This document shows positions 41,614-48,929 of a DNA stretch of 64,000 nucleotides, one piece after another. Numbering within the stretch: position 1 is the stretch's first letter; every line of letters begins with the position of its first letter. The position numbers and the translations under genes were made by a program. Origin of the DNA: a plasmid; sequence record NZ_AP019754.1; one strand, written 5' to 3'. The notes beneath the pieces are model-generated. The model had not been told where the DNA came from. It ran no database searches and was given only the letters and a program-made list of their open reading frames with translations.

Positions 41614-42294
41614 TTACGCTTTCAGCGAGGCGCCGCCGCAGATAACCAGTTCCTGGCCCGTAATGGCTGCGGCGGATTCGCTAAGTAGATAACCCACTAG
41701 CGAGGCGACTTCTTCTGGTTGAATGAGCCGGCCAATCGGCGGAACCATAGGGGCCGACGACGTACGTTCAGGTCGGGTGAGCATGGGGGTTTCGGTCGCA
41801 CCAGGCGCAACAACGTTAACAGTGATGTTACGCGGTGCCAGCTCCATTCCCCACGAGCGAACCATGCCAACCAGCGCCGCTTTGGTTGCAGCGTACTGCG
41901 AGCGGTTGGCGGCACCTCGCGACGTGCGGCTACCTATAATGACAATCCTACTGCCAGGCTGCATCATCGGCACAAAGTGGTTCACCAGGACTTCCGCCGC
42001 TTGAACGTGCAACGACCACAGGCGCGCGCCGGCAGCGCTATCAAGTTCGCCTAACGGGGCGGCCACCATCATCCCTGCTGCATGTATCAACGCATCCGGG
42101 GTACCGAGTGTGCTGATAACCGACTTAAGCTGTTCCGCATCCGTTAAATCCACGGCAACCCAGTTAAGGTTCGGTGAGGCCATCTCTCCCTGGGTTCTGC
42201 TAAGTCCCGTCACTTTCCAGCCGTTATTCAGCAGATGATGGGTGATGGCCTGGCCGATACCGGAACTGTATCCCGTGACGATAGCGTGACGCAT
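41614..42294 (-). CDS. SDR-family oxidoreductase
   Basis: 226 aa. N-terminal VTGYSSGIG. Y/K catalytic context YAATKAA. Confidence 0.8.
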   Translation of the reverse strand: MRHAIVTGYSSGIGQAITHHLLNNGWKVTGLSRTQGEMASPNLNWVAVDLTDAEQLKSVISTLGTPDALIHAAGMMVAAPLGELDSAAGARLWSLHVQAAEVLVNHFVPMMQPGSRIVIIGSRTSRGAANRSQYAATKAALVGMVRSWGMELAPRNITVNVVAPGATETPMLTRPERTSSAPMVPPIGRLIQPEEVASLVGYLLSESAAAITGQELVICGGASLKA

Positions 42295-42295
42295 C

Positions 42296-42766
42296 TCAGT
42301 CTCCTAACATAGATTTTGGCACTTTAAACACCGCTTTGCGGACCGTCATCGGTTCGTTGACCGCGCACAGCGCCTGATGAGGCTCACCGGGCAGAAATAC
42401 CGCAAAGTCCCCTTTGCGTAGCGTTATGCTCACGGGCCATTCGCGGGGGCGGGTGATGAACAGATCGGGTTTCTTCTCTTCATCATCCGTCTTCGCGACG
42501 GACTGCGTACCGGCGTTGATAATCTCTTCGCCTTCCAGCATCACCTGAATATCCGCCCAAAGATGGTGATATTCGGTGTGCCGTAACGCGGCATCTTCGG
42601 TAGTGGCCTGCTGAATATTACAAAACCACGCAACATTTTCTGGCTGCCATTTACCGATATCTTTTGCTGCCAGTGCCTCAAACGTGCATGAGGGTAAACG
42701 GAGCAGGGCCAGTAAGGGTTCAGGTAATCCTGCCAGGGCCAGGTTGTTCAGGTTTCCAACAATCAT
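42296..42766 (-). CDS. YhcH/YjgK/YiaL (DUF386, NanQ-like) family protein
   Basis: 156 aa. Small beta-sandwich family linked to sialic-acid catabolism in E. coli (yhcH/nanQ). Start is 2 nt after the SDR gene stop. Confidence 0.65.
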
Positions 42767-42770
42767 CAGA

Positions 42771-46312: not shown

Positions 46313-46331
46313 TACCCACTCCTTTTTTAAA

Positions 46332-47477
46332 TTAAATCCTGGGGAAAAGTGTCCGGTAAATTGCAGCCACATCTTGATGGCTGACTACGCAAGGCGAATT
46401 GCTCATCAATCGCTTCACGTTCAGAGCCGCTTCACTGAGGGAATCGATATCATCGGATGGCACACCCAGGGCTTCCAGGTTATCAGGCAGGTTGAGGCGT
46501 TTGACTAATTTGGCCAGATAGTCAACCAGCGCATGTGATTTCTCTTCCTGACTCAGCGTGGTATCGGCTTCCGGGATCAGATCCCAGACGTTGGCAAATT
46601 TCTCCACCGCAAAGGGCCGCACTACTTTCATGCAGGGCGCCAGCAGAATGGCGTTAGCGACACCGTGAGGCAGATGCCAGGTACCGCCTAAGGGATAGGA
46701 CAGGGCATGAACAAGATGGGTACCGGCATGGGCAATGGCTGCACCGCCATAATAAGAGGCCCACAGCATTTCCAGCTTGGCTGTCAGGTTATGCGGTTCA
46801 TTAACGGAGGTTTCCAGATGACGGAATAATTTATACAACCCCATGAGTGCAACATTGTCACCGACAGGATTCGAAATCGTTGCGGTGTAGCACTCAAGTA
46901 AATGGCACAGCGCATCAATTCCCGTTGATGAGGCGATATGCGCTGGCATGCTGGTTGTCAGCTCAGGTATCAGGGCAACATAATCTGGCAGCATGACAGG
47001 CGAAATAATACCGACTTTGGTATTTTGCTCGGGAATGGCCAGAATGGCATTTGGGGTCGATTCCGATCCTGTGCCCGCAGTAGAAGGAATGAGCAGCGAC
47101 GGCAAGCGCGCTTCAATTTTCTGACCGTCCAGCAGAGCCTTGAGCGAAGGACGGGACGCATGGCATAAAACCGAGAGGAGCTTCGCCACATCCAACACGC
47201 TTCCGCCACCAACACCCACGACCAAATCATAGGCCTTACCTGCCGTGCGCGTCAGCACTGTTTCAACGTCAGTATGCGTCGGCTCTGCCGGAACATCGTC
47301 AATGAGCTCTACCTGACGAGCATCCTGCCCCAGTAGCGTGAGGATCTGCGCTGTTGCCGGCAAATTCACAATGTTTTTATCTGTTAAAACCAGCAGTCGT
47401 TTTCTGCCCGCCACGACGGGCGCCAGTGCGTTTATCGCATGAGAACCGCTTAATATCGTGCTGTTAATTATGGCCAC
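46332..47477 (-). CDS. iron-containing (group III) alcohol dehydrogenase
   Basis: 381 aa. GGGSVLDVAK glycine-rich NAD motif, plus metal-binding His residues in the C-terminal half. Confidence 0.8.
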   Translation of the reverse strand: MAIINSTILSGSHAINALAPVVAGRKRLLVLTDKNIVNLPATAQILTLLGQDARQVELIDDVPAEPTHTDVETVLTRTAGKAYDLVVGVGGGSVLDVAKLLSVLCHASRPSLKALLDGQKIEARLPSLLIPSTAGTGSESTPNAILAIPEQNTKVGIISPVMLPDYVALIPELTTSMPAHIASSTGIDALCHLLECYTATISNPVGDNVALMGLYKLFRHLETSVNEPHNLTAKLEMLWASYYGGAAIAHAGTHLVHALSYPLGGTWHLPHGVANAILLAPCMKVVRPFAVEKFANVWDLIPEADTTLSQEEKSHALVDYLAKLVKRLNLPDNLEALGVPSDDIDSLSEAALNVKRLMSNSPCVVSHQDVAAIYRTLFPRI

Positions 47478-47942
47478 ATTCTTCTCCCCGTTTATGACTG
47501 AAATTCATCATGCTGCTGTAGCGCAATCACTCAGCGACTAAATTTATAAATAAAATGGCGCTTTATTAAATTGATCTTGCTCACATATAATCGATTGTGA
47601 TTGAATATAATCAAATGATCGAGCGGGTGCTTTGCACACCTGGTCGCTGTATGTAAATGCGCCTTTAGCTGAAGCCGTCAGTGAGCAGCACGCGATTTGC
47701 TGCCTGGTGCGTGTTCCGTTGGTGATGCGCAGCGCACCGTCAAATGCGGTATTACTCAGGTGCGGAGATTGCGACGGCATCGTGCGCGACGGGATTCAGA
47801 ATTGAGGGCCGGGCGGGTAATTGTGCGCCATACAGATACTTTCCCGGCCGCGGCCGGAGTCTGACTGTATTGATTAAAGTCGGTGTTTTCGGAGATGAAA
47901 CCACCCTTTCAGAAATATTGAGCTTCGTTGAGGAGAAAACAG

Positions 47943-48929
47943 GTGACGAATACTGTTGCTATAACAATGGGAGATCCTGCCGGGATCGGTCCTGAAATCA
48001 TTATTAAAGCGTTAGCCGAAGGTGCATTGAATGGTTCACCCGCGGTTGTTATCGGCTGCGCTGAGACTTTCCGCCGCATACTGGCCATGAACATCACACC
48101 TCAGGTTGAACTCCGGGTGATCGACCAGGTTTCTGAGGCACGGTTCACGCCCGGCATCCTTCATATTATTGATGAGAAGGTGGCGCATCCCGAAGCGTTG
48201 CAATGTGGTGTGGTTCAGCCAGAAGCCGGTGACGTGGCCTACCGTTGCATCAAGCGCGCGACAGAAATGGCGCTGCGTGGTGAGGTAAAGGCGATTGCGA
48301 CTGCGCCGCTGAATAAAGAAGCGCTGCATCTGGCAGGGCATCATTATCCGGGCCATACCGAATTACTCGCGAAGCTAACGGACACCAAAGATTATTCGAT
48401 GGTGCTCTACACCGATAAACTGAAAGTCATTCATGTCACCACACATATTTCCCTGCGCAAGTTTCTGGATACGCTGAGTCAGGCGCGGGTGGAAACGGTG
48501 GTGAGGATTGCCGATACCTTTTTACGCCGGGTCGGTTTCACCCAACCGCGTATTGCGGTGGCAGGAGTAAACCCACATGCGGGTGAAAATGGTCTGTTTG
48601 GCGATGAAGAGATCCGTATTCTGACGCCCGCTGTCGAAGCGATGAAAGCGCAGGGCATGGATGTGTACGGCCCCTGTCCACCGGACACCGTTTTCATGCA
48701 GTGTAACGAAGGCATGTACGACATTGTTGTCGCCATGTATCACGATCAGGGGCATATTCCGCTTAAGCTGCTTGGCTTTTACGACGGGGTGAACATCACG
48801 GCAGGATTGCCTTTCCTGCGTACTTCAGCCGATCACGGTACGGCATTTAACATCGCCTGGACAGGTAAGGCTAATCCGGAGAGTATGGCGATATCAATTG
48901 ATATGGCCATGAAGATTACCCGGGAGTAA
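47943..48929 (+). CDS. PdxA-family 4-hydroxythreonine-4-phosphate dehydrogenase-like oxidoreductase (PdxA2-type)
   Basis: AITMGDPAGIGPEI matches the PdxA N-terminus (ITPGEPAGIGPDL). GTG at 47943 is preceded by GAGGAG at a 7-nt spacing. The tool's TTG at 47928 lacks an SD. Confidence 0.75.
   Translation: MTNTVAITMGDPAGIGPEIIIKALAEGALNGSPAVVIGCAETFRRILAMNITPQVELRVIDQVSEARFTPGILHIIDEKVAHPEALQCGVVQPEAGDVAYRCIKRATEMALRGEVKAIATAPLNKEALHLAGHHYPGHTELLAKLTDTKDYSMVLYTDKLKVIHVTTHISLRKFLDTLSQARVETVVRIADTFLRRVGFTQPRIAVAGVNPHAGENGLFGDEEIRILTPAVEAMKAQGMDVYGPCPPDTVFMQCNEGMYDIVVAMYHDQGHIPLKLLGFYDGVNITAGLPFLRTSADHGTAFNIAWTGKANPESMAISIDMAMKITRE

Follow-up and report, generated by a model that had tools for sequence, protein, structure and literature searches.

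A 64,000-nucleotide stretch of plasmid DNA (record NZ_AP019754.1; hereafter the window) carries, at positions 41,614 to 48,929, an operon whose aldolase, transporter, YhcH protein and sialidase-like BNR protein recall sialic acid (Nan) catabolism, which raises the question of what this operon and its divergent neighbor, pdxA2, degrade. The original prediction was that a modified or anhydro sialic acid, or another nonulosonic or keto-deoxy sugar acid, is taken up and processed in the cytoplasm. What survives of this proposal is an operon, assembled from Nan-like parts, for the breakdown of a 2-keto-3-deoxy sugar acid, in line with its last variant (another keto-deoxy sugar acid). We estimate a probability of about 50% that the window holds a partly decayed copy, probably obtained by horizontal transfer, of a widespread cluster that degrades a seven-carbon (C7) 2-keto-3-deoxy-aldaric acid, the best candidate for which is 3-deoxy-D-lyxo-hept-2-ulosaric acid (Dha), a sugar resembling sialic acid that occurs in side chain D of the pectin rhamnogalacturonan-II (RG-II). 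The general scheme, in which a keto-deoxy diacid is split into pyruvate and a C4 semialdehyde that is converted via D-threonate to dihydroxyacetone phosphate (DHAP), appears probable, and the identification of Dha as the substrate is tentative.

Scans of the open reading frames (ORFs) of the window against Pfam and NCBIfam, in which an equivalog is assigned by a curated NCBIfam cut-off, recovered all seven predicted genes, six of them tightly spaced on the minus strand and a PdxA2-type gene divergent from these. The genes are as follows, with the starts that are likely the true ones:

41614-42294, minus strand: short-chain dehydrogenase/reductase (SDR; adh_short_C2; no equivalog reached)
42296-42766, minus strand: YhcH/YjgK/YiaL protein (DUF386; PF04074 and TIGR00022 passed)
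42771-43928 (ORF to 43952), minus strand: BNR_2 protein (PF13088, 220 bits), likely start at Met9
43930-45351, minus strand: SSS transporter (PF00474)
45428-46312 (ORF to 46372), minus strand: aldolase of the dihydrodipicolinate synthase (DHDPS) family (PF00701, 212 bits), likely start MRKK
46332-47477, minus strand: iron-containing alcohol dehydrogenase (Fe-ADH; Pfam Fe-ADH and ADH_Fe_C), the first gene of the operon
47943-48929 (ORF from 47928), plus strand: pdxA2 (NF002891, 667 bits), likely GTG start at 47943

With these starts, the gaps between the minus-strand genes are 1, 4, 1, 76 and 19 nt. The window is 99.4% identical in DNA to plasmid pPANA1 of Pantoea ananatis LMG 2665 across 21 kb (99% for the BNR protein), and the sister plasmid of P. 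ananatis LMG 5342 has the same RefSeq gene set with the same corrected starts.

A comparison of gene neighborhoods, which the original prediction had proposed for the Erwiniaceae, was run across the Enterobacterales, on 80 species-representative loci from a genome scan, to which E. coli 536 was added for the clustering of families (81 loci; individual homologous loci are labeled L0xx, for example, L002 for P. allii and L081 for the E. coli/Klebsiella type). The cluster recurs opposite dtnK-pdxA2-deoR in about 60 of the 80 species loci, in the order FeADH→DHDPS→carrier→BNR→YhcH, divergent from DeoR←PdxA2←DtnK. The arrangement is not a chance juxtaposition: in 58-77 of the 81 clustered loci, the nine core families are again found side by side. 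A variant with an SSS carrier and with the SDR after YhcH is found in Atlantibacter, Kosakonia, Leclercia, Enterobacter, Pectobacterium, Dickeya, Erwinia and Serratia, and another, with a TerC protein in the position of the SSS carrier, an SLC13/DASS carrier after YhcH and no SDR, is found in E. coli, the K. oxytoca group, Kluyvera and Pseudocitrobacter. The hosts are mostly plant-associated genera. The E. coli version was matched in 1032 of 5426 complete genomes (about a fifth); this island is genomic region GR6 (nagE..glnS), for which Sinorhizobium homologues have been noted and the function is described as uncharacterised in a 2026 comparison of extraintestinal pathogenic and adherent-invasive E. 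coli strains (PMC12928451). TerC-family membrane proteins are seen in two independent variants of the cluster (L081, positions 8120-8878, and the high-GC locus L082, positions 2645-3688), where they might serve in metal supply or in transport.

Compared to these relatives, the window carries a partly decayed copy, with the kinase lost and the regulator displaced, as is the case in P. ananatis and P. stewartii. The further features that bear on this are:

47750-47938, plus strand: dtnK remnant (tblastn match to residues 342-408 of E. coli 536 DtnK, 49% identity)
47571-47613, no strand assigned: conserved control block with probable DeoR operator/promoter elements (cross-genus alignment)
4203-4973, plus strand: DeoR-family regulator (HTH_DeoR and DeoRC domains; 76% identical to E. 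coli 536 DeoR)
41593-41570, minus strand: terminator-like hairpin ending the six-gene operon (9-bp stem with 5 GC pairs, then a T-run; 20 nt past the SDR stop)
48964-48985, plus strand: terminator-like hairpin after pdxA2 (8-bp stem, then a T-run)

Both the remnant and the DeoR gene were identified by tblastn of the window with the E. coli 536 island proteins. The divergent orientation of pdxA2 had been described correctly, but the gap of about 450 bp had been taken as the promoter, overlooking the remnant; likewise, the predicted absence of NanK, NanE and NanR from the cluster holds, but a regulator, of the DeoR family, does exist elsewhere in the window.

What is left of dtnK in the window is the last ~63 codons (the C-terminal ~14-16% of the gene), and compared to P. 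allii, where dtnK is intact, ~1.1 kb is replaced by 153 bp, starting right after the conserved control block (homology to P. allii stops at 47618). The same truncation is present in every matching P. ananatis plasmid in PLSDB, and in P. stewartii plasmids from the same database the gene is shorter still (~8% left). Intact DtnK passes its equivalog NF047819 (cut-off 450) in P. allii (489 bits) and in E. coli (535 bits), whereas the window retains only the C-terminal remnant. The six-gene operon and pdxA2 are still full length in P. ananatis despite the loss of dtnK, and this survival without the kinase suggests continued selection. The pdxA2 protein exceeds the cut-off of the D-threonate-4-phosphate dehydrogenase equivalog (NF002891, 667 > 583 bits), is 74% identical to its E. 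coli 536 counterpart and has a RefSeq orthologue named D-threonate 4-phosphate dehydrogenase; it is predicted to be a decarboxylating 4-phospho-D-threonate dehydrogenase with DHAP as the product. The DeoR gene lies ~43 kb away from pdxA2, which it normally adjoins; the encoded protein is 68-80% identical to 61 cluster-linked DeoR proteins, which are 63-100% identical among themselves. Between the divergent operons, nearly all positions of the 43-bp block at 47571-47613 are invariant over 10 genera, whereas the surrounding intergenic alignment is 63% identical, and the block holds TGATTGAA/TTCAATCA-like palindromes; it is likely the DeoR operator. This prediction draws on cross-genus conservation, as a promoter consensus scan of the divergent region gave nothing convincing. 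A degenerate copy of the block sits nearer the Fe-ADH start. That pdxA2 stands alone and that the cluster lacks its regulator thus reflect gene loss and rearrangement rather than design, and in the window the pathway would halt at D-threonate unless another kinase substitutes.

The aldolase had been called NanA-like, and membership in the DHDPS/NAL class I family stands, with the Schiff-base Lys163 and Tyr135 kept in 65 of 65 sequences; the likeness to NanA itself does not, given that the protein fails both NanA equivalogs (147 < 281 bits for NF003164 and 117 < 382 bits for TIGR00683) and has Arg140 where NanA has Leu (Leu142). This Arg, present in 64 of the 65 sequences, corresponds to DHDPS Arg138, the residue that holds the carboxylate of the C4 semialdehyde in that enzyme; the alignment of the Arg was confirmed against DHDPS chains in the PDB. 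The DapA equivalog TIGR00674 is also missed (188 < 206 bits), and the Thr44-Tyr107-Tyr133 triad of DapA is broken by Thr45→Asn and Tyr107→Phe in all 65 sequences. The protein is predicted to be a class I pyruvate aldolase, putatively a keto-deoxy-heptulosarate aldolase. A role as a KdgD-type dehydratase was considered and rejected on weak scores.

Among the NCBIfam models, Fe-ADH matches lactaldehyde reductase and 4-hydroxybutyrate dehydrogenase best, but reaches no cut-off. The gene is conserved in 62 loci; an aldo-keto reductase (AKR) takes its place in L090 and is found alongside it in L089, which is apparently fungal. The enzyme is best read as the putative reductase of the aldehyde released by the aldolase, converting a C4 semialdehyde-acid to D-threonate. 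The transporter belongs to the SSS family as predicted but matches only generic SSS models rather than SiaT, and no solved sialic acid symporter is among its PDB matches at E ≤ 1e-3, the best of which are choline and glucose SSS carriers. The YhcH protein, predicted as YhcH/NanQ, is a member of the YhcH/YjgK/YiaL family (TIGR00022, 91 > 45.5 bits) and matches solved DUF386 and YhcH structures, but it does not reach the NanQ equivalog (NF040884, 96 < 160 bits); it is found in 58 loci and is missing from several variants. Adjacency of BNR and SDR genes recurs in L083, in L087 and in short Pantoea modules, and the SDR is missing from the E. coli/Klebsiella variant; the SDR appears to be a frequent companion of BNR that is dispensable in the E. 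coli type, with no role assignable from sequence.

From these families we infer the catalytic steps and the substrate of the following scheme. The SSS carrier would import the substrate, either free or as a small glycoside (a DASS, TRAP, ABC or MFS carrier would do so in other hosts); the sialidase-fold protein, often with the SDR, would liberate or condition the keto-deoxy acid, and YhcH, a putative anomerase or ring-opener, would provide its open-chain form. The DHDPS-like aldolase would then cleave the C7 acid into pyruvate and 2,3-dihydroxy-4-oxobutanoate (D-threuronate), Fe-ADH would reduce D-threuronate to D-threonate, DtnK would phosphorylate D-threonate to 4-phospho-D-threonate, and PdxA2 would convert the latter by oxidative decarboxylation to DHAP and CO2, with the divergent promoters controlled by the DeoR repressor. 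The scheme is redox-neutral, with the NADH spent by Fe-ADH regained by PdxA2, and yields pyruvate, DHAP and CO2 per ATP. The three oxidoreductases had been placed ahead of aldol cleavage, a placement that is not supported, pdxA2 being read as the last D-threonate step and Fe-ADH as a post-aldolase reductase.

The substrate would be C7 because D-threonate is C4 and is fed by a pyruvate aldolase. Given that an alcohol dehydrogenase or AKR stands between the aldolase and the kinase, the aldehyde product would bear the carboxylate, which makes the substrate a keto-deoxy diacid, and because no dehydratase is present, the keto-deoxy group would pre-exist in it. It follows from standard nomenclature that cleavage of Dha at C3-C4 and reduction give exactly D-threonate (C5 and C6 being threo), whereas L-erythronate would result from the D-arabino isomer. 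Besides Dha, we know of no natural C7 keto-deoxy diacid. An origin from pectin has circumstantial support from the plant-associated hosts and the apparently fungal homologues, from signal-less GH28 genes, which adjoin the module in 8 Pantoea/Erwinia loci (once within an oligosaccharide-type ABC operon), and from KdgT, which adjoins it in 4 loci. A sialidase-like enzyme acting on Dha has a precedent in GH143 (PMC6811678). According to a 2026 preprint, heating is sufficient to free side chain D from a fragment of RG-II, and for several of the RG-II sugars that B. thetaiotaomicron secretes, other gut microbes have no confirmed catabolic route (bioRxiv 10.64898/2026.03.13.711244). Chemistry of the apiose/apionate type for PdxA and DUF1537 was also considered, and was rejected since both proteins pass the D-threonate equivalogs.

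The BNR protein had been described as a sialidase-like hydrolase without a signal peptide, and indeed no hydrophobic signal sequence is seen at its N-terminus. The AlphaFold2 model (pLDDT 82) is a six-bladed β-propeller with four SxDxGxxW Asp-boxes, and its best 50 PDB matches in Foldseek are nearly all GH33 sialidases (TM 0.63-0.71, 12-17% identity). A direct search of the BNR sequence against the PDB matched only the Asp-boxes, and a profile of 30 family members was used instead, whose best matches are AmGH181 (E = 2e-16) and a GH33 enzyme (E = 1e-15). The register of the alignment agrees with the Arg-to-Asp spacing of GH33, in which the acid/base Asp comes about 25 residues after Arg1. It also agrees with 4fj6 and with the published GH181 residues E218, R234, R305 and H349-Q350 (PMC10067855). 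In this register, the positions of the sialidase active site are occupied as follows:

His41: position of Arg1 of the (F/Y)RIP motif; His41 in at least 90% of the family
Glu63: position of the acid/base Asp; invariant
His211: position of the catalytic Glu; Gln in remote members, never Glu
Arg227: Arg2, conserved
Arg316: Arg3, conserved
Tyr359: nucleophile Tyr, conserved

Thus, the propeller and Asp-boxes of GH33 are present, and of the catalytic residues on which the original prediction was to be judged, the Tyr and two Arg are kept, whereas Arg1, the Glu and the acid/base Asp are replaced, leaving neither the full Arg triad nor the Tyr-Glu pair. BNR keeps the sialidase fold and part of the carboxylate/anomeric-center machinery, and probably forms a separate family. 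Candidate reactions are those of a cytoplasmic Dha ketosidase on Dha-(2→3)-galacturonic acid, of an enzyme acting on arabinofuranosyl-(1→5)-Dha, and of an anomerase or hydratase of the free acid. A glycoside is favored as the BNR substrate by the ABC and GH28 neighbors, and an acid of monosaccharide size is favored by the DASS, TRAP and SSS carriers. DASS and TRAP carriers favor small carboxylates.

The BNR family comprises 255 representative clusters at E < 1e-30, and we examined the contexts of distant members that are 46-60% identical. In the low-GC locus L083, a single operon encodes a DUF1537 kinase, FeADH, PdxA, DHDPS, SDR, BNR and a TRAP carrier (DctPQM), in this order. The high-GC locus L082 has an SBP_bac_5 ABC system, an esterase and TerC opposite BNR-FeADH-DHDPS, together with a GntR regulator, a DUF1537 kinase and PdxA, and L087 has ABC-BNR-SDR. 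In L090 (73% GC), ABC-BNR is accompanied by DeoR←PdxA←DUF1537 and then by an AKR and an HpcH/HpaI class II aldolase, the best matches of which are GarL and HpaI, both keto-deoxy-dicarboxylate aldolases. Homologues that are 50-52% identical are found in L088 and L089, on contigs with fungal-type transcription-factor domains, and both loci are apparently fungal, judged by those domains alone; in L089, BNR, DHDPS, PdxA, MFS and AKR genes lie beside these domains, with no DUF1537 kinase in the sequence stretch examined, and the pathway may cross kingdoms. Throughout, including at 46-50% BNR identity, the functions that are kept are the sialidase-fold protein, a pyruvate aldolase, an aldehyde reductase and a PdxA-type dehydrogenase, with a DUF1537 kinase in the bacterial clusters, whereas five types of carrier are interchangeable (SSS, SLC13/DASS with TerC, TRAP, SBP_bac_5 ABC and, in the apparently fungal locus, MFS). 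BNR, aldolase, reductase, DUF1537 kinase, PdxA and a carboxylate carrier co-occur in the family, the kinase being the component that the window is missing. The replacement of the aldolase and the reductase by unrelated families of the same chemistry argues that the enzyme assignments are right and that they belong to one pathway. A more remote homologue, P0138 (43% identity), lies in an unrelated context (GH2, aldose epimerase) and was not used for functional inference.

Uptake of a modified or anhydro sialic acid, or of another C9 nonulosonic acid, with redox steps preceding NanA-type cleavage, would account for the Nan-resembling set (DHDPS-family aldolase, YhcH, SSS carrier and sialidase fold), and the redox conversion of anhydro and dehydro sialic acids by YjhC/NanOx is known (PMC7315737). 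This reading, the first variant of the original prediction, is nevertheless very unlikely. The NanA and NanQ equivalogs all failed, Arg140 stands where NanA has Leu, Arg1, the Glu and the Asp of sialidases are all replaced in BNR, the carrier matches no solved sialic acid symporter, the cluster has no enzymes for N-acetylmannosamine, N-acetylglucosamine or other N-acetyl sugars, the hosts are plant-associated bacteria and apparently fungi, and, with the obligate linkage to the D-threonate kinase and dehydrogenase, the C4 fragment would have no place in C9 catabolism. Kdo, a C8 acid, is the other sialic-like acid of RG-II, and could be the substrate if BNR were a Kdo-hydrolase or conditioner and the aldolase released pyruvate and D-arabinose, with the D-threonate genes as mere neighbors. 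B. thetaiotaomicron and Flavobacteria secrete Kdo, some plant-associated microbes consume it, and gut microbes have no confirmed route for it (bioRxiv 10.64898/2026.03.13.711244). D-arabinose, however, leads nowhere toward D-threonate, and Kdo catabolism would leave unexplained the kinase and PdxA within the one L083 operon, the swap to a GarL/HpaI-like dicarboxylate aldolase in L090, the kept Arg for the distal carboxylate and the DASS carrier, such that we regard it as quite improbable.

It is improbable as well that the D-threonate pair (dtnK-pdxA2-deoR) and the keto-deoxy-acid module are independent and unrelated, with nothing in common except a regulator or their location. Such independence would fit the Pantoea that carry SSS-BNR-SDR alone, the six-gene operon of P. 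ananatis that is intact though dtnK is gone, and Salmonella, which presumably has dtnK-pdxA2 without the other genes of the cluster; but the two sets are found together in Gammaproteobacteria, in high-GC bacteria, in the low-GC variant with a TRAP carrier and, apparently, in fungi, combined with five types of transporter, they are interleaved within the single L083 operon, and beside canonical dtnK-pdxA2-deoR the carrier of the aldolase operon is the sole one, with no separate D-threonate uptake evident. A sub-variant of the C7 diacid scheme keeps the downstream chemistry and makes BNR an anomerase, a ring-opener, a hydratase or an opener of a lactone or anhydro form. Carriers for carboxylates of monosaccharide size (DASS, TRAP, SSS) accompany BNR, three of its catalytic positions are now His, Glu and His/Gln, and a β-propeller mutarotase, NanM, provides a precedent; in addition, clan GH-E tolerates mechanistic change, as in GH181 (PMC10067855). 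Conversely, BNR keeps the nucleophile Tyr and two carboxylate-binding Arg, as in true ketosidases, its neighbors (the SBP_bac_5 ABC system, the cytoplasmic GH28 and the oligosaccharide ABC system) point to oligomers, and ring opening is already covered by YhcH in Enterobacterales. We consider this sub-variant possible, albeit unlikely.

Several observations weigh against the degradation of a C7 keto-deoxy diacid, and of Dha in particular, by this cluster. Dha is a very minor plant component, and the C4 epimer (D-xylo) or an as yet undescribed natural C7 diacid would fit equally well. If free Dha is imported, the BNR protein, which is always present, has no explanation, and if a glycoside is imported, DASS and TRAP are unusual carriers. 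The position of Arg140 is Phe in the TRAP-linked L083, the specificity of Fe-ADH is not assignable with its equivalogs below cut-off, and a dozen Pantoea have only SSS-BNR-(YhcH)-SDR, from which neither an aldolase nor a reductase, a kinase or PdxA2 is encoded less than 10 kb away. In the window itself, the pathway is incomplete. Finally, the literature search (on D-threonate/sialidase/YhcH, heptulosarate aldolase, DUF1537/PdxA2 and RG-II topics) found no description of the pathway, but its coverage was incomplete and an earlier description could have been missed.

The copy in the window suggests horizontal acquisition on a large plasmid, because its genes resemble Enterobacteriaceae versions more than chromosomal Pantoea/Erwinia ones; specifically, the P. 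ananatis BNR is closer to the former (83-85% identity) than to the latter (75-78%). Around the cluster, the gene downstream of pdxA2 (49673-51043) is annotated by RefSeq in P. ananatis LMG 5342 as tyrosine phenol-lyase rather than tryptophanase, and is followed by an ORF of 416 aa with the look of a membrane permease (51199-52449). In P. allii (L002, 809-3333), a 624-aa ORF (a DUF2235/Tle1-like type VI effector, judging by its sequence) and a 219-aa lipoprotein-like ORF, neither of which is in the window, are inserted between pdxA2 and the phenol-lyase gene. At the other end, a phage antirepressor ORF with Rha and KilAC/ANT domains (39218-39925), ~1.7 kb from the end of the operon, hints at mobile-element activity near the cluster. 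The displaced DeoR gene is surrounded by three EAL-domain proteins (two GAF-EAL and one BLUF-EAL; 37-8053), and a GH1/PTS β-glucoside pair follows this region (8162-11070). Among the other loci, the short Pantoea modules are seen in L048-L059, L015, L029 and L034-L037, and five of them are preceded, in the same orientation, by genes for an SBP_bac_1 ABC system and for a GH28 enzyme without a signal sequence. In L057, L061-L063 and L065 (Erwinia/Pantoea), a D-2-hydroxyacid dehydrogenase and one or two MFS carriers lie between the aldolase and SSS genes, together with a 'putative cyclase' gene in L062.

If the cluster does degrade a C7 keto-deoxy diacid such as Dha, it would fill a gap in the mineralization and cross-feeding of the rare acidic sugars of RG-II in soil, plants and gut, would explain the purpose of the widespread DtnK/PdxA2 pair and give D-threonate a natural source, and would provide a function for the nagE-glnS island in about one fifth of complete E. 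coli genomes, including the phylogroup-B2-type strain 536. It is plausible, though somewhat less likely than not, that this is at once the first described route for Dha and one shared by plant-associated and gut Enterobacterales, other bacteria and fungi, with BNR founding a new family of clan GH-E that has a His/Glu/His site and would act in the cytoplasm on Dha or on the labile fragments arabinofuranosyl-Dha and Dha-galacturonic acid. BNR probably represents a new family that resembles glycoside hydrolases and in which the active site of sialidases is altered, and the 'sialidase' annotation in the window should not imply sialic acid metabolism or foraging on host glycans. P. ananatis, with dtnK lost, and P. 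allii, with dtnK intact, form a natural control pair.

The cluster combines known kinds of enzymes into a pathway of which we found no description in the literature searched, and several of its parts can be set against known systems. With the E. coli nan operon, it shares a class I aldolase of the DHDPS family, YhcH, a secondary carrier, a sialidase fold and the organization as an operon for a ring-forming 2-keto-3-deoxy acid; it differs in the absence of NanK, NanE and NanR, in an aldolase, YhcH and carrier that fail Nan-specific models, and in the handling of the aldehyde, which would proceed through a reductase, a DUF1537 kinase and PdxA2 from a presumed C7 diacid, not as N-acetylmannosamine. 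BNR has in common with GH33 and GH181 (clan GH-E) the six-bladed propeller, the Asp-boxes, Arg2 and Arg3, and with GH33 only the Tyr, whereas identity is 12-17% and His41, Glu63 and His211 occupy the positions of Arg1, Asp and Glu; GH181 departs from GH33 in other ways, having an inverting mechanism and Gln in place of both the Tyr and the third Arg (PMC10067855). The Dha-hydrolase of GH143 (the N-terminal domain of BT1020 of B. thetaiotaomicron) has five blades, retains the Tyr-Glu pair and belongs to the apparatus with which that species degrades RG-II, in contrast to the six-bladed, GH33-like and cytoplasmic BNR, in which His replaces the Glu. As for Salmonella DtnK and PdxA2, to which E. 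coli PdxA2 is 75% identical in the case of the latter enzyme (PMC12928451), pdxA2 of the window and dtnK of the sister loci pass the same models (NF002891 and NF047819, respectively), but the pair here sits within a more extensive cluster, by which D-threonate would be made internally, and dtnK is deleted in the window. DapA provides the best HMM and PDB matches of the aldolase, in which the Schiff-base Lys and the equivalents of Tyr133 and Arg138 are kept, and both enzymes would handle pyruvate, a C4 aldehyde-acid and a C7 diacid; the aldolase differs in scoring below the cut-off (188 < 206), in its invariant Phe and Asn changes, in its catabolic context and in its presumed direction, cleavage. 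A parallel in logic is the glucarate/galactarate route, with GarL as the aldolase, GarR as the tartronate-semialdehyde reductase and GarK as the kinase, where, as proposed here, a keto-deoxy diacid gives pyruvate and a semialdehyde-acid that is reduced to a hydroxy-acid and phosphorylated. The cluster described here would follow that logic with other families (a DHDPS-type aldolase, Fe-ADH, DUF1537 and the decarboxylating PdxA2), without a dehydratase, and on a substrate that is one carbon longer, yielding a C4 rather than a C3 fragment.

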